A stretch of 64,000 nucleotides of DNA from Candidatus Nomurabacteria bacterium (GTDB lineage Bacteria > Patescibacteriota > Minisyncoccia > Phycocordibacterales > UBA9973). The translations under genes and the position numbers were made by a program. The notes beneath the pieces were generated by a model. That model worked only from the letters and a program-made list of their open reading frames with translations, was not told the DNA's origin and did no database searches. The stretch lies in NCBI GenBank assembly GCA_021413905.1, contig JAIOPO010000001.1, positions 73,159-137,158 on the forward strand, in the 5' to 3' direction. Below are positions 3,641 to 40,450 of the stretch, one piece after another. The stretch's first letter is position 1, and each line of letters starts with the position of its first letter.

Positions 3641-5780
3641 TCATTAAAAGATTTTTACTTTCAATAGGCATCATCGACCAAATTTCTTCGGTAACGAAAG
3701 GCATAAATGGGTGAAGGATTTTTATACAATCAATCCAAATAGGTAAAAGAATTTTTTTTATTTGCTGTCCTTCTTCATTATCTTTCTTACTTTCTTCGAT
3801 TAGCTCATCTGCAAATTTGTGCCATATATAGTGATAAATTTTTTCTGATGCTAAATGAAAACGATAATTTTCCATATCATTTGTAATATCTTTTGTAATA
3901 TCATTAAACTCGTTTACTATTTTATTTTCCCCATATGTCTGACATAGGGGAACCATTTGTCCGACATACGGATTATTATCTAAAACAAATCTCGTAATAT
4001 TCCAAATTTTATTTGCAAAATTTTTATAGCCTTTTATTTTATTTTCATCTACTTTACTATCTGTGCCTGGAGCTGTGCCGACAATGAGAGCCATACGTCC
4101 TGCATCAGAACCGTATTTTTGTGAAATTTCAATCGGGTCAACACCATTGCCTAAAGATTTAGACATTTTTTGCCCTTTTGAGTCACGAACTGTTCCATTT
4201 AAATAAATATTTTTGAAAGGTATTTCACCAAGCGCGTATTCACTCATCATTATCATTCTCGCTACCCAAAAGAAAAGAATCTCATATCCTGTTTCAATCA
4301 CATCTGTCGGATGATATGTTTCCATGTCTTTTGTTTTTTCAGGCCAGCCAAGTGTAGAAAAAGTCCACATTCCTGAAGAAAACCAAGTATCAAGAGTGTC
4401 TTCATCTTGTTTCCAACCTTCACCTTGTGGAGCTTCTGTTCCACAATAAATTTCTTCTTTACCTGCCGTGAGCGAAGTCGAACGGTACCAAACAGGAATT
4501 CTGTGCCCGTACCAGATTTGTCGGGATATACACCAATCTCGCAAATTATCTATCCAATGAAAATATGTTTTTGAAAAATATTCCGGTATTATTTTTATCT
4601 CTTCTTTTTCCAGCGGATCACGCATTAATTCTTTTAATGTTTTATTGCCTCGTTCTGGTATTGATTTATTTACATTTATAAACCATTGCAATTTTGGCAA
4701 GGGTTCGATGATACCTCCTGTTCGTTCAGCTGTGGAAATATTTTGTTTTATTTCTTCTTCTTTTTCTAAAAGATTTTGCTCGCGAAGCCATTCGACTATA
4801 ATTTCTCTAGCTTCTGTTGTTTTTTTATTAAGTAGATTTTCTCCACCAACAGTCATTTTGGAATATTCATTTATCACTTGCGGTCGAGAGAGTTCATGTC
4901 TGTCAGCTATTTCCCAGTCAATCATAGAATGCGCAGGGGTGACGCCGAGTGCACCGGTACCGAAAGTTGGATCAACTTCTTTGTCCGCAATTATTTTTAT
5001 ATGAAGTGATACACCACAAAATTCCAAATCATATTCTTTTCCAATAAATTCGATATAGCGAGTGTCTTCTGGGTGTACAGCTACAGCCACATCACCGACT
5101 TTTGTTTCAGGACGACTTGTTGAAATAGAAATAGGGAAATCTTTAGAATATTTAAAAGTATAGAGTTTTGAAGTTCTTTCTTCATAAACTATCTCATCAT
5201 CAGAAATAGTGGTTTGTCCTTTTGGATCCCAGTTTATTATTCTATTTCCACGATAAATGAGTCCATCGTCATACATTTTTTTAAACATTGTGTTAACTGC
5301 AATATTTCTTTTTTCATCTAAAGTAAAAGCTTCACGTGACCAATCACAAGAAGAACCCATTACGCGTATCTGAGAGGTGATGGTGTCGTGACTTTCTTGG
5401 GCATAAGTTTTTATTCTTTTTAACATTTCTTCTCGTCCTAAATCATGACGAGATTTTCCTTCTTTTTTTTGAACTTCTTTTTCTACTCGTGCTTGAGTGG
5501 CTATGGCTGCATGGTCTGTGCCCGGGAGCCAAAGAGTTTTATAACCTTGCATTCTTTTTTGGCGAATCATTATGTCTTGAATTGTGAGCATCAAAGCATG
5601 TCCCATATGTAAAACTCCTGTCACATTTGGCGGAGGCATTATTATTGTAAACGATTCTTTTATTACATTTGGAAGATTGTCAGGATTAAAAAAACCGCTT
5701 TCTTCCCATAGTTTGTAGATTTTTGATTCTGTTTCTTGTGGATTATAAGGTTTTAAAAGTTTTTCATTTGTTTCAGACAT
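3618..5780 (-). CDS. valS: Valyl-tRNA synthetase (short form lacking the C-terminal coiled-coil)
   Basis: 720 aa; class I HIGH region PPPNVTGVLHMGHA and a KMSKS motif; ValRS-type N-terminus. Confidence 0.85.
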   Translation of the reverse strand: MSETNEKLLKPYNPQETESKIYKLWEESGFFNPDNLPNVIKESFTIIMPPPNVTGVLHMGHALMLTIQDIMIRQKRMQGYKTLWLPGTDHAAIATQARVEKEVQKKEGKSRHDLGREEMLKRIKTYAQESHDTITSQIRVMGSSCDWSREAFTLDEKRNIAVNTMFKKMYDDGLIYRGNRIINWDPKGQTTISDDEIVYEERTSKLYTFKYSKDFPISISTSRPETKVGDVAVAVHPEDTRYIEFIGKEYDLEFCGVSLHIKIIADKEVDPTFGTGALGVTPAHSMIDWEIADRHELSRPQVINEYSKMTVGGENLLNKKTTEAREIIVEWLREQNLLEKEEEIKQNISTAERTGGIIEPLPKLQWFINVNKSIPERGNKTLKELMRDPLEKEEIKIIPEYFSKTYFHWIDNLRDWCISRQIWYGHRIPVWYRSTSLTAGKEEIYCGTEAPQGEGWKQDEDTLDTWFSSGMWTFSTLGWPEKTKDMETYHPTDVIETGYEILFFWVARMIMMSEYALGEIPFKNIYLNGTVRDSKGQKMSKSLGNGVDPIEISQKYGSDAGRMALIVGTAPGTDSKVDENKIKGYKNFANKIWNITRFVLDNNPYVGQMVPLCQTYGENKIVNEFNDITKDITNDMENYRFHLASEKIYHYIWHKFADELIEESKKDNEEGQQIKKILLPIWIDCIKILHPFMPFVTEEIWSMMPIESKNLLMIEKWPNV

Positions 5781-5826
5781 ATTAGAATAATATCATAAAA
5801 TTTAAGCATTTTCTACTTTGTTCATT

Positions 5827-6897
5827 TTACAATGACAAATTACCTACAGCTTTTATTTTTGCCGGATTTGGCACTTTTTTATTGTTTTTTATGTATTTCA
5901 AATAGCTTACTATACCTATCATAATGGCATTATCTGTCGACAATTTTTTTTCCGGGAAAAGTATTTCAAGTTTTGGATTGTCTTTTTTTAATTTCATTAT
6001 TTCTTTTCTTAAATATTTATTAGCAGATACTCCGCCAGCCACTATCAAAGTGCCAGCTTTGTGCAATGTTAAAGCTTTTTTTGTTTTGTGAATTAATGTT
6101 TCTACTACTGCATTTTCAAATTCTAAAGCTATTTTCATTTTTATTTCTTCATCTAATGTGCCGATTTTTCTTATTAAATAAAGCACAGCAGTTTTTAATC
6201 CGGAAAAAGAAAAATCAAAATTCTTTGAATACATCATCGGGCGAGGAAGAGTAAATGCAGGACTTTGCTGTAAAAGCAAAGTCCTGCCCAATTCCGCTAA
6301 CCTTGAAATCTCCGGACCGCCGGGATAAGGAAGCCCCAACATTCGCGCAACTTTATCAAAAGCTTCTCCTGCTGCATCGTCTAAAGTTTCCCCGATAACT
6401 TTATATTTCATCCAATCTTTTGCAAGGACTAATTCTGTATGTCCACCGGAAACCAATAGAGACAAAATAGGGAAATTTGTTTTAGGTATTTTAAATTCAC
6501 CTTTATTTTTTCCAAAGACTGAAAGTATGTGTCCTTCCATGTGATTCACCGGCATCAATGGCACGTTACATTTTTTTGCCAATTCTTTTGCAAAAACAAT
6601 TCCTGTCCAAAGTGCTGGTTCAAGACCAGGGCCATATGTGACAGCAATCAAATTTATTCCCTCAAGAGATTTTAATTTTCCTTTTTTCAATACTTTATTT
6701 AAAAGTATGGGCAAATTTTTTATGTGTTCACGTTTAGCTAAAGCAGGGAAGACTCCGCCGTATTCTGCGTGTATTTTTATTTGTGAAGATATTCCTTCCG
6801 CTAATACTTTAAAGGTTAGATTTTTCTCTCCACCTTTTGTTTCCAGTATTGCTATACCTGTGTCGTCGCAACTTGTTTCAATGCTTAAAATTTTCAT
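5827..6897 (-). CDS. tsaD: tRNA N6-adenosine threonylcarbamoyltransferase TsaD (Kae1/Gcp family)
   Basis: 356 aa; N-terminus MKILSIETSCDDTGIAIL, metal-binding HMEGH and C-terminal GGVSAN motif. Confidence 0.85.
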   Translation of the reverse strand: MKILSIETSCDDTGIAILETKGGEKNLTFKVLAEGISSQIKIHAEYGGVFPALAKREHIKNLPILLNKVLKKGKLKSLEGINLIAVTYGPGLEPALWTGIVFAKELAKKCNVPLMPVNHMEGHILSVFGKNKGEFKIPKTNFPILSLLVSGGHTELVLAKDWMKYKVIGETLDDAAGEAFDKVARMLGLPYPGGPEISRLAELGRTLLLQQSPAFTLPRPMMYSKNFDFSFSGLKTAVLYLIRKIGTLDEEIKMKIALEFENAVVETLIHKTKKALTLHKAGTLIVAGGVSANKYLRKEIMKLKKDNPKLEILFPEKKLSTDNAIMIGIVSYLKYIKNNKKVPNPAKIKAVGNLSL

Positions 6898-8710: not shown

Positions 8711-8782
8711 GGCCCTATCGTCTAACGGTTAGGACATCGCCTTTTCAAGGCGGTAATCAGAGTTCGATTCTCTGTAGGGTCA
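8711..8782 (+). tRNA. tRNA-Glu (anticodon UUC)
   Basis: GGCCCTATCGTCTAACGGTTAGGACATCGCCTTTTCAAGGCGGTAATCAGAGTTCGATTCTCTGTAGGGTCA; anticodon loop TTTTCAA; T-arm GAGTTCGATTCTC. Confidence 0.85.
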
Positions 8783-10449
8783 CATAAAGCAGAAAAGCGG
8801 TTTTCAAAGCACTCAAACCCTTTTTTGCACTTATAATTCAACGTATTTTGAGAAACAGAAAGTTCTGAAAAGATAACTCTGATGATTTTTTCCTTTTCGT
8901 GTGGTTTTGCGAAATTGTAATATGGTATAACGTTTTTTATGAGTTCTGAAAGTTTTTGAACCTCCTTCATTGTTTCGTGCATAGCGATGTCAGAAATATC
9001 TTCGTCGCTCTTGAGTGCTGAAAGCTCTGCTTCAAGTTTTGTTTCTTCTTCGATGAGTGCTTCTGGTGAATACACGCCCGACTTCAAGAGTGAGAGTTTG
9101 TTTGAGCGTATGTATGCGAGATTTTCTCGAATGGTTTTTTTCTTTCGTTCGAGTTGGTCCAATCCTTTTTGTCGCTTTTCTTCGAGCAGGGCGATGTCTG
9201 TACCGACACGAGCGTCCATAAGCTCGATTTCTTCGTCGGTAAAATACAAACCGTTCATCAGTCCGCCGATTTTCTCATCAATAAACTTGAAATTGAAGTT
9301 CTTGAAAGTATTTTCGCATCCGTTCACGCATCGTGCATTGAAATACTGGATACCTTTCTTGGTGTATGGAGTATAGACACGTTCACAATGTACACAACGT
9401 ACAATGCCTCGAAGTGGTTGGTCGAGTTTTTCCGTATAGTGAACGCTGACTTTCTTCTTTTTGAGTACGGCTTGAACATCGCTAAAAAGCTCGTCGCTAA
9501 CGAGAGCCTCGTGGCTGTTGCTGTGAATATAGTTACCGTCAGGGTCGAGCGTTCTTCCAGTGTAGAAGCGATTTGTAAGTATTCTGCTGACGTGGTTTTC
9601 GGTTAGAGGTCTGGACGTTTTTTCAATTTCATCGAACTCGTCTTCTTCAGCCAGCATTTCTTCTTTTGTTCTTCGTCGTCTCATTGGAACAGTAACCAAA
9701 CCTTGCTCTTTGGCGAAGCGAGCCAAGTCAGAGAGGCTCCAATCTCCCGTAGCGTAGTATTCAAACATCTGCTTGATTATAGGAGCACGTACGGGGTCAA
9801 AAGGCTTATGTTCCATTTCGCCAAGGTTGAGATAGCCGATTGGGGCACGATAGGTACAAATGCCTTTTTCTCGTGAGTTTCGTATGGTGATAGTGACCTT
9901 CTCGCTCGTAACCCGTGAGTGATGCTGTGAGAACATACCGTCGATGTCCATATGCAGAGCACCCGAAGAAGTCTTGTCATATTTTGCATAGACAAAACGA
10001 AAATCAATGCCTTTACGCATTAGCTTTCTAACAAGCGTGTCGTCGCCTTTATTACGACTGATACGGTCCCAACAAAGACACACAACGCCTTTGAAATAGC
10101 CTTGGCTTACAAACTGAAGCATTTTTTGAAACTTGGGTCTGTCGATGCGGTATTGAACCAATCCATCATCGGTGATACTCACGTCATTGTCTTCCGTGAA
10201 GCCAGAGTGCTTTTCTGAAATGATACCGTCGGCACAGAAGCCCTTGATTGTGATTGGTGCGATTAAAAGTTTTTCTTTGTAGGCGTATCGAGTATTTTCA
10301 GTTTTTTGGTATGAAATTGAGTTCTTTTGATTGTCAGCTTCATCGGTGCTTTTTCTGCCGTATAGCAAATAGTGGTCACGGTATTTACCGCTGAGTATTT
10401 CGGCTATCAAATCTTTTTCGGTTTTTATACTCGACTTTTTCATATACAT
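8722..10449 (-). CDS. Large serine recombinase (phage-integrase type, resolvase/invertase catalytic domain plus zinc-ribbon and coiled-coil)
   Basis: 575 aa; N-terminal catalytic Ser motif YGRKSTDEADNQ, a recombinase domain, zinc ribbon CVHCERV...CVNGC and a C-terminal coiled coil; the last roughly 20 codons read through tRNA-Glu. Confidence 0.8.
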   Translation of the reverse strand: MYMKKSSIKTEKDLIAEILSGKYRDHYLLYGRKSTDEADNQKNSISYQKTENTRYAYKEKLLIAPITIKGFCADGIISEKHSGFTEDNDVSITDDGLVQYRIDRPKFQKMLQFVSQGYFKGVVCLCWDRISRNKGDDTLVRKLMRKGIDFRFVYAKYDKTSSGALHMDIDGMFSQHHSRVTSEKVTITIRNSREKGICTYRAPIGYLNLGEMEHKPFDPVRAPIIKQMFEYYATGDWSLSDLARFAKEQGLVTVPMRRRRTKEEMLAEEDEFDEIEKTSRPLTENHVSRILTNRFYTGRTLDPDGNYIHSNSHEALVSDELFSDVQAVLKKKKVSVHYTEKLDQPLRGIVRCVHCERVYTPYTKKGIQYFNARCVNGCENTFKNFNFKFIDEKIGGLMNGLYFTDEEIELMDARVGTDIALLEEKRQKGLDQLERKKKTIRENLAYIRSNKLSLLKSGVYSPEALIEEETKLEAELSALKSDEDISDIAMHETMKEVQKLSELIKNVIPYYNFAKPHEKEKIIRVIFSELSVSQNTLNYKCKKGFECFENRFSALCDPTENRTLITALKRRCPNR

Positions 10450-10697
10450 TGTGGGATTTCCTTTTTACGGATAACACCATCCACGATTTCGTATCCTTCA
10501 GAAACCATACGTTTGTGAATACCTCGGAGTATGTCGCCAAGTTCTTCAAGTGCGTCGAGAGTATCCTTTGAGAGGACGGGGCTTGAGCTTAATGAGGGAC
10601 CACGTGATGATGCTTCGTTGCTACACAAAAGTCCACGTTGCCCCTCGTTAGGTTCAAACTCTGGAGCATCATATTGACCTGTGTGTAGCTCATTCAT
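10440..10697 (-). CDS. Hypothetical small protein immediately upstream of, and overlapping the start of, the recombinase
   Basis: 85-aa ORF in island-type GC context; stop overlaps the recombinase start codon (translational coupling). Confidence 0.3.
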   Translation of the reverse strand: MNELHTGQYDAPEFEPNEGQRGLLCSNEASSRGPSLSSSPVLSKDTLDALEELGDILRGIHKRMVSEGYEIVDGVIRKKEIPQCI

Positions 10698-10711
10698 AAT
10701 AACATTTCTTC

Positions 10712-11350
10712 TTATTTATTCCGACCTTTTGTTTGTGTGTTCAGTTTGTTTTCAGCAATTTTGAACATTTTGTAATTTGTAAAAACCTCCCCGTACATAC
10801 GCTCGATTTTTTTCTGCTTTTTTGTTGGCTCTCCTCGATATGTCTGTCTTTTTGCTTTTTGGCTGAGCTTCTCGATTTCATCGTAGAGTTCAATCGTATG
10901 AAGCAACGGGTAAAGGTGATATTTCTTGTTCACTTTGCGTGAGCTGTATGTGAGTTCGTAGCAATGACGGCATCCAAACCAGTCGCCATCCTTGTAAAGG
11001 ACCCCGACACGGCGACCGCAATACTGACCGTTCTTGCTTAGTGTGCATATAAACCAGTGTCGTGTACCACCAAAGTGGCACGGGCTTTCTACGATTGGGA
11101 CCTTGTAGTCAAAGTCCTTCTTTTCGCCCGTGGCGTTGTCAGTTTGGGTGTATATGAAGCGTGCGTATTTTTCGTCGTCCCAGATGGAGACTTGCACGGA
11201 GACGCTTCCTCTTGAGCCGTTCTCGCCCCAAGAGACAGTTGTGTGTTTATAACCCCCGTATTTTTTGATGTCACGGAGTAGCCACCATATTTCTATTTTC
11301 TTGCACCAGTCTGCTTCAGATTTGCTCATAGTTTTATACGCCGAAATCAA
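10712..11350 (-). CDS. Zinc-ribbon protein (CxxxxC...C...CxxC), hypothetical
   Basis: 212 aa; cysteine cluster SPCHFGGTRHWFIC...CGRRVGVLY...GCRHCYELTYSS. Confidence 0.4.
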   Translation of the reverse strand: MISAYKTMSKSEADWCKKIEIWWLLRDIKKYGGYKHTTVSWGENGSRGSVSVQVSIWDDEKYARFIYTQTDNATGEKKDFDYKVPIVESPCHFGGTRHWFICTLSKNGQYCGRRVGVLYKDGDWFGCRHCYELTYSSRKVNKKYHLYPLLHTIELYDEIEKLSQKAKRQTYRGEPTKKQKKIERMYGEVFTNYKMFKIAENKLNTQTKGRNK

Positions 11351-11391
11351 TAGGAAATCTCACTGTTATCTCCGATTTTCGGCACTTACTT

Positions 11392-11970
11392 TTACAGAAC
11401 GAACCCATTTTCGTTGTCTCCGTTTATATCGACATCAACGGCAATCGGGGGCGTTACCGCTTCGCCCTTTCGCACTGATTGCAGTCGCTGAAGCTCGTGC
11501 AGTGCCTTGTAAAGTCTGTTCTCAATCGCTATTTCATAGCGGAGATAGGTGGTGGAAAGTTTATCGACAGCCTCGTGACCAACGACTGGCGTATAGCCCT
11601 CGTTTTTGACAACGGTTTCCGTAAATGAAATCTCCATCATTGTGTCGTGAACCTCGACCAGTCTGGGGTTAAGAATTGATTGCATATACTCCTTTTCGGA
11701 TTTTGCTACTCTGTACAATTTCAGATAGTACACACCAATACGGTCCACGAGTATTTTTTCGAGTACGCCGACTGGTTGAAATTGAGCATTAAGACGGTCA
11801 GCAATGTCTTGTGAAAAGCTCTGCTCGTAATCCGTCACAGACTCCTTGAAAATACCGTGTTTGATTGCGTTGTATTTGCTCACAGCTTTTCCTTCGTCTG
11901 TTTTTACTCCGCCCTTTTTACCATTTTCACGGTTCGCTTCGAGCTGTTTTGGTGATATTTCTTGGTTCAT
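11392..11970 (-). CDS. Hypothetical protein
   Basis: 192-aa ORF in the island cargo operon; no recognisable motif. Confidence 0.3.
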   Translation of the reverse strand: MNQEISPKQLEANRENGKKGGVKTDEGKAVSKYNAIKHGIFKESVTDYEQSFSQDIADRLNAQFQPVGVLEKILVDRIGVYYLKLYRVAKSEKEYMQSILNPRLVEVHDTMMEISFTETVVKNEGYTPVVGHEAVDKLSTTYLRYEIAIENRLYKALHELQRLQSVRKGEAVTPPIAVDVDINGDNENGFVL

Positions 11971-16514: not shown

Positions 16515-16650
16515 CCCACCACAGTAAAGAACTCCTCGTTAGAGTCTTACCTGTGGTGGGTCGTATTGGGAAACTGGTACGGGTGGCGAAAGCCACCGAG
16601 CTTTAGCGGGGAGCTTTTTGTTCTCCGTAAGCATAAAAAACCCACCACAA
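16515..16650 (+). promoter_or_regulatory. Structured leader between the HTH gene and mod: CCCACCACAG inverted repeat (16515-16524 and 16551-16560), GNRA hairpin GGTGGCGAAAGCCACC (16582-16597), third CCCACCACA copy (16641-16649)
   Basis: Read directly from the sequence; an 11-bp perfect inverted repeat ACCCACCACAG/CTGTGGTGGGT with a 27-nt spacer, and a direct copy of the same decamer just before the mod start. Confidence 0.35.
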
Positions 16651-37401: not shown

Positions 37402-37502
37402 AAAAGTAATTCACTTATTTATTTGACTTTAATTTCTTATTTTTATACACTTGTTTTTACAATTGTCCTTTTTAAATTCACAATTTTAAAGATTTAATCG
37501 TT

Positions 37503-37988
37503 ATGAGAAAGTTAGTAACACGTAGTGATATTAGGAATTATTATTCCAATCACAAAAATTTTATTTTGGATCCAGTTTATAACTGGGTAAATAAAAACAA
37601 AGTAAAGATGCCCGTATCATTTGATGAGGTTGAAAAGATTTCATTGAGAGGGCAGTGTGGCAGAATTCTGCCCGGTAATTCGGTACTTATTCATGTTTTA
37701 GATGAACATGGTGAAATGGCCGAATCATCGTTGTTTGTGGTTGACGGTAATGTTTCAATTTTACCAGAAAGATTTGAGTATAAAAATCAAATCATTCTGA
37801 ACGCCAACCATAGAATGGCAAAAGCTATGATTGGAAGGAGAGTTGATTCCCTCAATCATTTTATTTCTGACGATGGTCAGAAAATTGATTTTCTCGTTAA
37901 GAAAATTTTTTCACCGAAAAGTGTTCGGTGGAATCAAATATTAAATTATTTTTTGGAAAAGAAAATTGTTGAATTTCAGCCGGCATAG
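37503..37988 (+). CDS. Hypothetical protein
   Basis: 161-aa ORF with no recognisable motif; followed by a strong terminator. Confidence 0.3.
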   Translation: MRKLVTRSDIRNYYSNHKNFILDPVYNWVNKNKVKMPVSFDEVEKISLRGQCGRILPGNSVLIHVLDEHGEMAESSLFVVDGNVSILPERFEYKNQIILNANHRMAKAMIGRRVDSLNHFISDDGQKIDFLVKKIFSPKSVRWNQILNYFLEKKIVEFQPA

Positions 37989-38013
37989 CTGAAAAAATAA
38001 GTATTTGAATGTA

Positions 38014-38043
38014 GCGCGTCTTGCAAAAGACGCGTTTTTTTAT
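38014..38043 (+). terminator. Rho-independent terminator
   Basis: GCGCGTCTTGCAAAAGACGCG hairpin followed by TTTTTTT; lies inside the 5' end of the called 38005 ORF. Confidence 0.55.
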
Positions 38044-38082
38044 TTTAAGGTGCCTAGCGGCAACACCTTAACTGGTGGTACA

Positions 38083-38895
38083 ATGAATGGAACAATGACA
38101 AATATTTGGAATTATAAAAATCAATTAACTCAAACAATAATTGGCCCTAATACCATGTCATATTTATATGATCATGAAGGGAATAGAGTAAAATATGTTA
38201 AAGGTGCAAATATTACATATTATCCCAATAAATTTTATAATATTTCTGGTACTAAAAAAACAAAACAAATTTATGTCGGCGAACAACTAGTAGCCACAAT
38301 AGAAACAAATGGTGCTGTTGTAACCCCATACTACATACACTCTGATCATTTGGGTTCAACAAATGTTGTAACTGATTCTTCTGGTACCAATGTTCAGTTG
38401 CTTGATTACTATCCATATGGAATGAAAAGAATTTCTGCTGGAACATACAATGAACAGAGACAATATATAGGCCAAATATATGATGCAGATACAATGTTTG
38501 ATTATCTTAATGCTAGATATTATAAACCAGATATAGGTAGATTCTTGAGTGAAGATCCAGTGTTCTGGAATTTATCACAAGAATTACTACTTGACCCTCA
38601 ACAACAAAATTCGTATTCTTATGGAAGAGATAATCCAATAAAAAATAGTGATCCTACTGGAAATCTTTCTTTAGAAGCATTAATAAATGATCCAATAGGA
38701 AGTATTAGAAATAGCGCAGGGTGGGGTTTATTTTCTCTCGGTGGAAATTTATTCAATAAACCATTTTCAGCGTCCTTGCTAAGACACTCTGCTTCACTTG
38801 AGCCAAATAACTTAACAATAGATTCAAACAATCAAAAACAGTATGGAAATCCAGTTAATAAGATAATGAAACAAGTCAGTATAAAAGTTATGTGA
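38083..38895 (+). CDS. Orphan Rhs/YD-repeat C-terminal module: last YD repeat, RHS repeat-associated core domain and a variable C-terminal toxin domain
   Basis: YLYDHEGNR YD repeat, then the core signature YYIHSDHLGSTNVVTDSSG...YYPYGM...LNARYYKPDIGRFLSEDP...YSYGRDNPIKNSDPTGN, then a roughly 75-aa unrelated tail; start moved past the terminator to Met27. Confidence 0.7.
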   Translation: MNGTMTNIWNYKNQLTQTIIGPNTMSYLYDHEGNRVKYVKGANITYYPNKFYNISGTKKTKQIYVGEQLVATIETNGAVVTPYYIHSDHLGSTNVVTDSSGTNVQLLDYYPYGMKRISAGTYNEQRQYIGQIYDADTMFDYLNARYYKPDIGRFLSEDPVFWNLSQELLLDPQQQNSYSYGRDNPIKNSDPTGNLSLEALINDPIGSIRNSAGWGLFSLGGNLFNKPFSASLLRHSASLEPNNLTIDSNNQKQYGNPVNKIMKQVSIKVM

Positions 38896-39203
38896 ATGAA
38901 ACAATTGAAGGAGCAAAAGGTGGTAAAATGACAAATTCTAGTCATTTCGAATTTGAGAATAAGAGTGATTTATATTACTCACTTCACGGTGCAAATATTC
39001 AATCACAAGTTTCTCAAAAAAACGGAGTATGGATTGTTAATAGCACTGTAACAGATAGATATAATTTTAATTCTACAAATCCACAGACTTATAAAGGAAC
39101 AATTGTTAAAATACCAGCAACTCAAGCATACAAAGATCAGAGTAAAGGAGTTTTAAGTAATTATAATGTAAGCATTAAAATTAGTGACAAAATTAAACAA
39201 TAA
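38892..39203 (+). CDS. Hypothetical protein; candidate immunity protein for the Rhs C-terminal toxin
   Basis: 103-aa ORF overlapping the stop of the Rhs C-terminal ORF by 4 nt. Confidence 0.3.
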   Translation: MNETIEGAKGGKMTNSSHFEFENKSDLYYSLHGANIQSQVSQKNGVWIVNSTVTDRYNFNSTNPQTYKGTIVKIPATQAYKDQSKGVLSNYNVSIKISDKIKQ

Positions 39204-39208
39204 CTTTT

Positions 39209-39721
39209 ATGAAAAAAATTACATTAATTATAATTGGCGCTATTGCAGTAATCTCTATTGGAGGGTTCATTCTATATTTTTTCTGGTTTATTAAACCAGA
39301 AAAAGAAATTGCCGAGAAGTGTCAAGGATTCACTCTTAATTGGACAGACTTCATTGATTGTCATGGAATCGTTTCAATCCATGATGGATGGGATATGGAC
39401 TATTTATCTATTGATGATCACATGCATGATTATGAAATCGCACGTGTATACAATCAGAATCAATATATCTTTTCAGACAACAAAGTGTTTGTTAAAAATT
39501 TAAAAACAATTGAAGGCAGTTCTTATGATGGATTAAAGACAGAATATTACCAAAGACTTTTCCAAGATGGAGAAGTTGTTAGAAATTTTTACGATGCTGT
39601 TTCTGATATTCCAACATATTTAGTTGTTGATATAGTTTCTGGTGAGGCAAAAGCATATAAAGCTATTATAGATGTGCCCGAAGCAGAAAAAGCATATTTT
39701 GAAGACTTAGAAAAAAGATAA
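39209..39721 (+). CDS. Membrane-anchored hypothetical protein; second candidate immunity protein
   Basis: 170 aa; N-terminal TM or signal-anchor MKKITLIIIGAIAVISIGGFILYFFWF. Confidence 0.35.
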   Translation: MKKITLIIIGAIAVISIGGFILYFFWFIKPEKEIAEKCQGFTLNWTDFIDCHGIVSIHDGWDMDYLSIDDHMHDYEIARVYNQNQYIFSDNKVFVKNLKTIEGSSYDGLKTEYYQRLFQDGEVVRNFYDAVSDIPTYLVVDIVSGEAKAYKAIIDVPEAEKAYFEDLEKR

Positions 39722-39850
39722 TTTTTAGAACTTGAACTTAAATAATTATCTATCAATTAATTTTTTAACAAACTATTGATTTATTTTTTAAATTATGTAT
39801 AATAATTTTAGATTTCATTTTGAATTAAACCTTAACCTTAATTAATAATA

Positions 39851-40450
39851 ATGAGAAAGTTCTTAATCATCGTTAGCCTTTTGTTGGCTAGTTTATTTTC
39901 TGTTGCTTTGGCGCAAGAAAATTCAAATCCTTCTGCTGGTACTTCAGCTAGTTCCAGAAAATTATTTGCTCCAGTTTTTTCTACTGGGGTTAGTGTTCAT
40001 CGAGGGCTCACTCTTGGTGGTGGTGTTCGTATCAGAGATACTGAAAAATTACCACCAATGAGGGTAGAAGGAACCTTTTCTTTACCCAAAACTTCGTTTG
40101 GGTTATCTTATAGGATTTATCCTTTTAAAAATCCTAAATGGATAGGTTTTGGAGTGGAGGGTTTGTATTTTTATAAAACAAATTTCTCTTTTTACTCTGA
40201 ATTATTTTTTGGGGGAAATGGTGCACAAACATTTAAGGATTTAAATACTTATTGGTGTGCCAAAAGATTGGTGTTAAGTCCTTTTGTTGATATCTTTATC
40301 CCAATTGGTAAATGCCGTCTTGGTTCAACGATAAATCCTTTTTTGTTTGGATTTTGGGACAGGGTAGATGGGAGATATGGCATCTGGAAGAGATGGACGA
40401 ATATAGGGATTTATTTCTCTATGCGCCTGGCTTCTAAACAGAAGAGTTAA
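39851..40450 (+). CDS. Secreted beta-rich hypothetical protein
   Basis: 199 aa; cleavable signal peptide (SVALA-QE) and alternating aromatic or Gly beta-strand pattern. Confidence 0.4.
   Translation: MRKFLIIVSLLLASLFSVALAQENSNPSAGTSASSRKLFAPVFSTGVSVHRGLTLGGGVRIRDTEKLPPMRVEGTFSLPKTSFGLSYRIYPFKNPKWIGFGVEGLYFYKTNFSFYSELFFGGNGAQTFKDLNTYWCAKRLVLSPFVDIFIPIGKCRLGSTINPFLFGFWDRVDGRYGIWKRWTNIGIYFSMRLASKQKS

Follow-up and report, generated by a model that had tools for sequence, protein, structure and literature searches.

A stretch of 64,000 nucleotides (nt) from Candidatus Nomurabacteria bacterium (assembly GCA_021413905.1, contig JAIOPO010000001.1, positions 73,159 to 137,158 of the forward strand; the whole stretch is called the window below) contains a short locus with an RHS repeat-associated core, which is followed by a C-terminal toxin domain (CT) and by a small gene on the same strand (Table 1). 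This locus is probably an isolated orphan rhs toxin-immunity module in the course of decay, its toxin broken and its immunity gene intact. As judged from its sequence, it is a 5'-truncated orphan rhs module, made up of the ~200 last codons of shell and core plus a toxin domain of ~180 amino acids (aa). What makes a decaying orphan module the most likely explanation is the combination of a frameshift with a terminator just upstream and with the absence of both a delivery part and a signal peptide. An earlier sequence-only reading had already proposed an orphan Rhs core with a C-terminal toxin module, and this part of it was borne out: the module has no delivery part, and a conserved immunity candidate adjoins it.

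A wider reading, in which we have somewhat less than even confidence, is that a large family of toxin domains resembling colicin M (ColM) is carried on Sec-exported SpvB/FG-GAP/Rhs (Tc-like) proteins of Patescibacteria and some other bacteria, that it attacks the lipid II of neighbouring cells, and that it is accompanied by a new family of membrane-anchored immunity proteins. The window would then represent an ultra-small episymbiont which has kept the immunity half only.

Frameshift within the toxin domain

In intact homologues, the tail which follows the Rhs core (LSLEALINDPIGS...NQKQYGNPVNKIM) continues in frame into ETSQYKSY...MTNSSHFEFE...SNYNVSIKISDKIKQ. Eight related loci, among them that of the 2537-aa SpvB/FG-GAP/Rhs protein P0137, have the domain in a single frame, and a switch of frame within the domain was seen in one of nine loci, namely in the window. 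In tblastn comparisons, P0002, P0003, P0004 and P0014 matched frame 1 up to position 38871 and frame 3 from 38868 to 39194; P0137 showed the same switch from frame 1 to frame 3 against the window. Identities of the frame-3 part were 58-72% to the C-termini of P0014, P0002, P0004 and P0003, and 63% to P0137. Since the homologues are collinear across frames 1 and 3, one missing base splits one domain. The deletion consists of the loss of one G: instead of the expected ATG GAA ACA AGT (..IM ETSQYK..) the window reads ATGAAACAAGT, i.e., ATGGAA has become ATGAA, and past this point frame 1 runs through eight nonsense codons to a TGA at 38893-38895. We infer that the toxin half is non-functional in the genome of the window. 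The frame-3 open reading frame (ORF) is listed at NCBI as hypothetical protein K8Q94_00635 of Candidatus Nomurabacteria bacterium (274-kb contig), which, to go by these alignments, is a gene fragment. Two claims of the sequence-only reading had to be given up here. The tail of ~75 aa is not a self-contained toxin, since the domain extends over ~180 aa and continues in frame in the intact homologues; the following 103-aa ORF is not a separate gene, being the C-terminal ~60% of the toxin domain, severed by the frameshift.

An unlikely alternative would be a sequencing or consensus error. Position 38866 would then read ATGGAAACA in place of the deleted form ATGAAACA, and the locus would hold an intact orphan of ~350 aa (core and full ColM-like CT), i.e., a silent or weakly expressed recombination reservoir that would serve, along with its immunity gene, a full-length rhs gene located elsewhere in the genome. 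Both halves are indeed free of stop codons and retain all conserved residues of the family (S42, P47, D102, Y133, A155, W123, F135, Q159, G162 and S165), and intact orphans of the same form exist elsewhere (P0002, P0003, P0004), the one from Candidatus Vogelbacteria with a 92%-identical tract of 221 nt. However, the lost base (GG to G in ATGGAA) does not belong to a homopolymer run, two assemblers arrived at an identical sequence, the Logan assembly of SRR15633504 being 100% identical over 1301 nt with the deletion site included, and no Rhs-like partner is present within 64 kb (tblastn with six homologues found no other Rhs-like sequence in the window). Several points speak for caution about a decaying module nonetheless. 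The two agreeing assemblies may share the same reads; no further lesion was seen in either half of the toxin, where the invariant and near-invariant residues are all kept, and this would fit either a very recent mutation or a consensus error; and promoter-like matches were at chance level (17 versus 15.9 expected). With the lesion restricted to the deletion and the conserved residues kept, the event should be recent or, less likely, a consensus error.

Two other ways of accounting for the change of frame were rejected. Programmed frameshifting was discarded as the site reads A-ATG-AAA-C and offers no slippery X-XXY-YYZ heptamer, and an alternative genetic code was discarded as the continuation of frame 1 is without homology and the other genes of the window are normal under table 11.

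Rhs remnant and partner gene

The Rhs core was recognized by TIGR03696 (RHS repeat-associated core) with E=1.5e-16 and 60.6 bits versus a cutoff of 32.5, at aa 109-193 of the protein when started at 38083. It was the sole match when the individual ORFs were compared with Pfam, NCBIfam and PHROGs; matches of Pfam RHS_repeat and RHS to the window ORF were below threshold. The motif DPTGN at 38650-38664 closes the core, and past it the CT type diverges among homologues. Only ~3 YD repeats (~65 aa) precede the core, and the long YD-repeat shell of hundreds of residues is not present ahead of it in the window, as the sequence-only reading had described. The same reading had noted a terminator hairpin inside the 5' end of the mechanically called ORF. 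This hairpin was recovered by a terminator scan (stem 38013-38036 with 10 pairs, 5 of them GC, a loop of 4, then the T-run TTTTTATTTT) and was reproduced at the same position by RNA folding. Homology to the YD repeats of P0029 and P0137 begins in tblastn at ~38059; as the upstream gene's terminator ends just before this point, the rhs gene is truncated there. Candidate start codons are the ATG at 38083 and the ATG at 38155, the latter being the start of the Logan gene call (P0001). The proposal that translation starts downstream of the hairpin, at about 38083, was thus only partly sustained: it agrees with the terminator, but the YD homology reaches upstream of this ATG, which leaves the start codon uncertain. 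The remnant has no signal peptide, its N-terminus (MNGTMTNIWNYK...) being without a hydrophobic segment. Full-length relatives such as the 2537-aa P0137 possess a delivery part composed of signal peptide, SpvB, FG-GAP propeller and YD shell, which is missing in the window.

Could the fragment still be functional, as a stand-alone "mini-Rhs" or as a module akin to toxin-antitoxin pairs, perhaps by way of ribosomal frameshifting? Short Rhs-core proteins with a Sec signal do exist (P0015, P0029, P0037, P0046, P0057, P0107, P0120), and orphan Rhs toxins of Salmonella are reported to be expressible from internal starts (PMC7043789). The remnant in the window, however, is without a signal peptide and has a terminator directly upstream, the A-ATG-AAA-C at the deletion is no slippery heptamer, and a location outside the cytoplasm is predicted for the immunity protein, which speaks against a toxin-antitoxin role within the cell. 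This explanation appears highly improbable.

The 170-aa ORF downstream of the toxin domain (ORF3) is the candidate for a cognate immunity protein of the ColM-like domain, as predicted from synteny and sequence comparisons. A homologue of ORF3 was found within 80 nt downstream of a domain of the CT family in nine of nine loci. ORF3 is 50-60% identical to the downstream gene in seven of them (L002, L007, L008, L011, L019, L022, L023), and in L020 a distant variant of the toxin (P0005, 28% identity) is followed by a distant homologue of ORF3 (31%). Such co-variation is as expected of a toxin-immunity pair. The loci stem from a metagenome-assembled genome (MAG) annotated as Saccharibacteria (L002/L010), from Candidatus Vogelbacteria (L006/L011) and from four metagenome contigs (L007, L008, L022, L023), and one of them lies behind the full-length P0137 (L019). 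Scans of genomes and metagenomes with the ORF3 alignment yielded 2 and 3 loci, respectively, which are partly redundant; the genome of the window is outside the GTDB-representative collection. ORF3 contains a single N-terminal transmembrane helix (aa 4-27; Kyte-Doolittle value of 2.7 for aa 4-22), preceded by K2 and K3, and no comparably hydrophobic segment follows. From the helix, its flanking lysines and the absence of anything hydrophobic thereafter, a signal-anchored protein with an outward-facing domain is predicted (positive-inside rule). Its cysteines C38 and C51 were invariant in five of five sequences. Searches of Pfam and of PDB sequences with the ORF3 alignment gave no match. Upstream of the full-length P0137 a DsbA/thioredoxin-like gene was noticed (L019, 3085-3861); it is speculation that this gene would fit the formation of a disulfide in the two-Cys immunity protein.

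The sequence-only reading had placed two immunity genes downstream. The conserved, membrane-anchored 170-aa ORF stands as a candidate for such a gene; the 103-aa ORF (ORF2) does not, as it forms one domain with the tail. A complete ~75-aa toxin behind DPTGN with two immunity genes (103 and 170 aa) is practically untenable and is refuted by the alignments: mechanical calling yields three ORFs, and a string resembling a Shine-Dalgarno sequence (GGAG..GGTGG) precedes the internal ATG at 38928, but this string lies inside conserved coding sequence (..GAKGGKM.. versus ..RAQNGQM..), tail and 103-aa ORF together align collinearly with a single unbroken domain in eight or more other loci and in numerous database proteins, and an AlphaFold2 model of the joined sequence is one confident domain.

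Table 1. Positions of the features of the rhs locus in the window, with the evidence for each.
Feature	Position	Strand	Evidence
Mechanical ORF with RHS repeat-associated core	38005..38895	+	open reading frame call
Intrinsic terminator of the upstream 161-aa ORF	38013..38046	+	terminator scan and RNA fold
5'-truncated Rhs remnant (last ~3 YD repeats and core)	38059..38664	+	TIGR03696, tblastn
Toxin domain, N-terminal part (aa 1-68, frame 1)	38665..38868	+	collinear alignment with intact homologues
Frameshift site (1-nt deletion)	38866..38871	+	tblastn frame switch, frame translations
Toxin domain, C-terminal part (aa ~69-179, frame 3; contains the 103-aa ORF 38892..39203 of the earlier reading)	38868..39203	+	homologue alignment
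Cognate immunity candidate (ORF3, 170 aa, intact)	39209..39721	+	synteny, identity, hydropathy

Toxin domain family and colicin M

A profile of eleven C-terminal domains was compared with 1.84 billion representative proteins. This search gave at least 925 clusters (50% identity) at E<=1e-3, of which 335 had E<=1e-10. In the best 150 matches listed, the domain sits at or near the C-terminus. Most matches are short proteins, i.e., orphans or contig fragments, but the list also includes proteins of 1.6-3.3 kb; the large members examined (P0137, P0161, P0182) contain SpvB, FG-GAP and RHS-repeat domains, and P0137 opens with a signal peptide. More distant members are carried by N-terminal regions of other, non-Rhs types. 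With its C-terminal placement on varied carriers the domain behaves as a typical tip of polymorphic toxins. One of the proteins observed, P0132 (271 aa), is a chimera of signal peptide, acidic region, an SpvB N-terminal motif and, in frame, the latter half of the ColM-like domain; it looks as if a large piece had been deleted from within a full-length toxin gene, which would be another route of decay.

The N-terminal part of the toxin domain contains the motifs HSxSLxP and NQxQYGN, the C-terminal part a core of beta-sheet and the motif DRYNF. AlphaFold2 (multiple sequence alignment of 18 sequences) folded the repaired domain of the window into a single confident domain, with pLDDT 84.4 and pTM 0.79; residues 3-68 are mostly helical (H3-8, H10-30 and H33-43 within CT residues 1-43), with one short strand at 50-52. 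The sequence-only reading had recognised nothing that the toxin domain matches, which was not sustained, since at the levels of profile and structure it resembles the fold and family of colicin M. In a Foldseek search of 350,000 PDB chains, the best match was pectocin M1 (8jc1_A, E=1.6e-4, probability 1.00); a second match, BtpeA-CTD, was set aside as weak (E=0.024 over 77 columns). With hhalign, the family was aligned to a 7-member profile of ColM catalytic domains with a probability of 92.8% and P=3.9e-7 over 117 columns, and the controls (a reversed profile and 20 column-shuffled profiles) all gave P>=0.04. Against a single ColM sequence, hhalign gave a probability of only 33%, so that a family profile was needed. 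The ColM profile consisted of ColM, whose sequence was identical to PDB 2xmx_A, and six annotated lipid II-degrading bacteriocins (from plasmids of Pantoea, Rahnella, two Serratia species, E. coli and Klebsiella). In the alignment, D131-x-Y133-[D/N]-F135 of the family falls on D226-K-Y228-D229-F of ColM, and a C-terminal helix and strand are aligned as well. Within the family, D131 is nearly invariant and Y133 invariant. On these profile and model comparisons, the CT family is a divergent relative of the catalytic domain of colicin M.

The link is remote, and a number of results weigh against it. TM-scores to pectocin M1 were low (0.33/0.25); PF14859 (Colicin_M) found no match among 18 family members at E<=10; and a hidden Markov model search of PDB sequences with the CT family returned no ColM-type chain. 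A search of Pfam with the CT family alignment likewise gave no match. The catalytic signature of ColM is DxYDx5HR (PMC5821083). Its HR dyad is not conserved in the family, being Y-K-G in the close subfamily and variable elsewhere, and the position of the second Asp is N in the copy of the window (DRYNF) and in many other members. Because of the lost dyad and the frequent Asn, the domain is termed ColM-like. On the side of the partner, hhalign of ORF3 against a Cmi-like and a PeiB-like protein gave probabilities of <=2.1%, and a structure model from the single ORF3 sequence was unusable (pLDDT 46).

If the likeness extends to function, the toxin of intact relatives would be set free past the DPxG site and, like ColM, would attack lipid II or wall precursors linked to undecaprenyl on the outside of the cytoplasmic membrane. 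There the anchored partner protein would neutralise it, in a topology like that of Cmi, PeiB and BmiB. In the genome of the window, the selected unit would be the immunity gene, which could shield the cell from relatives deploying the full-length toxin. Cleavage of lipid II by the CT family is an inference by analogy with ColM. A tentative alternative, rather doubtful in our opinion and concerning mechanism only, is a ColM fold which is no lipid II phosphodiesterase, but binds or sequesters undecaprenyl-linked precursors, or perturbs the membrane with hydrophobic, Gly-rich N-terminal helices. The missing HR dyad and the frequent Asn would agree with this, as would the largely helical prediction for CT residues 1-43 and the hydrophobic Gly-rich stretches of members, e.g., LLSQIVVQLGGGG; moreover, catalytically dead pectocin M1 still lyses cells when it is exported (PMC5821083). 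On the other hand, the nearly invariant D131 and the invariant Y133 are aligned with the catalytic D226 and Y228 of ColM, and degenerate signatures (DXFKX5R, HXYDX5FK) occur in accepted bacteriocins of the ColM type (PMC5821083).

Genomic setting, related loci and known systems

The window has the look of a Patescibacteria chromosome. Upstream of the cassette lie mraZ-mraW-ftsL-PBP-murF, and downstream GAPDH, rpiB, rpe and a split transketolase; in the murF-gap interval, the cassette is isolated, flanked by a 161-aa ORF and by an ORF for a secreted protein of 199 aa. The order murF, 161-aa ORF, terminator and orphan is identical in the Logan assembly of SRR15633504. No sign of an assembly collapse upstream, which the sequence-only reading had named as a finding that would refute it, was seen. 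The flanking ORFs (161 aa, 37503-37988, + strand, and 199 aa) had no match in Pfam, NCBIfam or PHROGs, and since they have no counterpart in the fetched Rhs loci, they were not counted in the module. The 199-aa ORF (39851-40450, + strand) encodes a clear signal peptide and a beta-rich, Gly/Phe-rich protein. A direct repeat of 25 nt (80% identity) is present at the start regions of the two flanking ORFs (37494-37518 and 39842-39866) and brackets the 161-aa ORF and the orphan cassette; it may be a chance product of AT-rich DNA. The GC skew of the coding strand is ~0-0.1 at 38100-39600 versus 0.2-0.35 in the flanking housekeeping genes, with a G+C content of ~0.30 like the surroundings; this difference is mild and compatible with a foreign origin of the cassette. 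Rfam and repeat scans found nothing associated with the cassette. Elsewhere in the window, an Rfam LOOT RNA (RF03000; 16481-16597, + strand; 86.7 bits versus a gathering threshold of 46.4) lies just upstream of a 773-aa ORF at 16618, and three tRNAs are present (1882-1953, 2315-2387, 8711-8782).

The related loci show in what company such orphans can be found. In the array of Candidatus Vogelbacteria, a 1968-aa protein with SpvB, FG-GAP, TcdB-midN, YD shell and an Ntox44 tip is followed by a small gene, then by the orphan P0002 with its ColM-like tip and the partner gene, and then by an orphan with an SLT tip; the 92%-identical tract mentioned above is common to the first orphan and the main rhs gene. 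In L007 and L023, a second stretch of Rhs core lies upstream of the orphan, which suggests arrays there too. Further genes were observed in these surroundings. The orphan with the SLT (lytic transglycosylase) tip in L011 (9247-11399) is followed by a 161-aa ORF, and a gene for a GH25 muramidase lies in the opposite orientation. In L002/L010 (2223-4857 and 586-1866), the intact orphan P0014 and its partner adjoin genes for an OLD-family AAA/TOPRIM protein, a UvrD-like helicase and an N6/N4 DNA methyltransferase; the first two look like a Gabija-like pair, and the whole looks like a small defence and conflict island.

Short Rhs-core proteins were abundant: 563 matches, several of them labelled Patescibacteria, were obtained from a limited set of candidates from metagenomes. 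The word-indexed homologue search also missed P0137, and the absence of long Rhs proteins there was not used as evidence. With hundreds of such proteins, and with related loci in Candidatus Vogelbacteria and Saccharibacteria MAGs, it is no surprise to meet one in a reduced genome, contrary to what had been thought from the sequence of the window. Eight of the short proteins (P0015, P0029, P0037, P0046, P0057, P0081, P0107 and P0120; 280-441 aa) consist of a Sec-type signal peptide joined directly to the final YD repeats and the core, with a toxin tip behind them; this tip is a CHAP peptidase in two proteins (P0057, P0120) and ColM-like in P0029; P0081 and P0107 are labelled Patescibacteria. 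These may be secreted Rhs toxins without a shell. Others, of ~430-470 aa and with differing tips, possess a common Arg-rich leader, MNLVDRVNRQRSLTAISRTLRSGRIAANASVPTTTYSYDA, or the variant MRGTTCCEQDASLAIIRRALRFERIV...; carriers include P0027, P0028, P0030, P0035, P0040, P0054 and P0056, further P0062, P0063, P0070, P0075, P0088, P0104 and others. The leader could be a junction or recombination sequence that has been conserved, or else the real N-terminus of a stand-alone "mini-Rhs" class. In L024, two short Rhs-core genes (4949-6163 and 10001-11407) are scattered among housekeeping genes, and two small ORFs lie behind each of the two; the leader was shown there only for the 468-aa P0035. Sulfatase and DUF1254 neighbours suggest that the genome of L024 does not belong to the Candidate Phyla Radiation (CPR).

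For annotation, the consequence would be that three hypothetical ORFs become one pseudogenised remnant of an rhs toxin and one immunity gene. If the wider reading given at the outset is true, warfare directed at cell wall precursors would be strong enough among CPR bacteria to keep an "orphan immunity" gene in a streamlined genome. A first functional handle, i.e., a ColM-like fold, a likely target among lipid II and undecaprenyl-linked precursors, and action outside the membrane, would be available for a widespread toxin tip outside Pfam, together with its cognate immunity family. The loci also add to the evidence for polymorphic toxin systems of the Tc/Rhs type with orphan arrays in Patescibacteria. 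Should the activity be confirmed, the ColM family would span from bacteriocins of proteobacteria to Rhs-delivered toxins of monoderm, ultra-small bacteria. Orphan rhs toxin-immunity modules as such are well known (PMC3150448, PMC7043789), and a "novel Colicin M-like toxin domain" in polymorphic toxins was already mentioned by Burroughs et al. 2025 (PMC12419801). What is modestly new here is that a widespread, unannotated tip can be assigned to the ColM fold, that Rhs/Tc-like proteins of CPR bacteria carry it, and that a new immunity family accompanies it.

In comparison with the orphan rhs-CT/rhsI modules of Enterobacteria (Poole et al. 2011, PMC3150448; Salmonella orphan Rhs, PMC7043789), the window locus has the same truncated core, a variable CT past DPxG and a small immunity gene on the same strand downstream; L011, L007 and L023 correspond to the classical array after a full-length gene, with a recombination tract of high identity. 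Unlike the enterobacterial modules, the copy in the window is isolated between murF and gap, with no full-length rhs gene in 64 kb, and its toxin domain is frameshifted. The full-length relatives possess a signal peptide with SpvB and FG-GAP (Tc-toxin B/C-like) instead of PAAR or VgrG-linked N-termini. In the host, a monoderm-like Patescibacterium, no type VI secretion system is known.

With the colicin M family (PF14859; ColM, pectocins M1/M2, PaeM, syringacin M), the toxin domain has in common the predicted fold, which is nearest to pectocin M1, and profile homology to ColM residues ~140-265. It differs by an insertion of ~24 residues (NQxQYGN region), by an extra N-terminal helical segment, and by being carried on Rhs and other polymorphic-toxin carriers, not on receptor-binding and translocation domains. 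ORF3 resembles Cmi, PeiB and BmiB in its N-terminal membrane anchor, external domain and two conserved Cys (PMC5821083), although no sequence relationship to Cmi/YebF (PF13995) was detectable. The domain of Burroughs et al. 2025 (PMC12419801), compared here by its description, is likewise a tip of ColM fold with a rapidly evolving, membrane-anchored, extracytoplasmic immunity protein; it is described on Cystatin-like lipoprotein carriers with BamE-like immunity proteins. Finally, TelC/TipC of Streptococcus (PMC5555719), with TelC a lipid II phosphatase of the LXG type from the type VII secretion system, offers a parallel for a predicted attack, by a toxin delivered through contact or secretion, on lipid II outside the membrane of monoderms, countered by a membrane-associated, extracytoplasmic immunity protein; its Lipocone/TelC fold and its secretion route are unrelated, and the analogy would concern the mechanism only.

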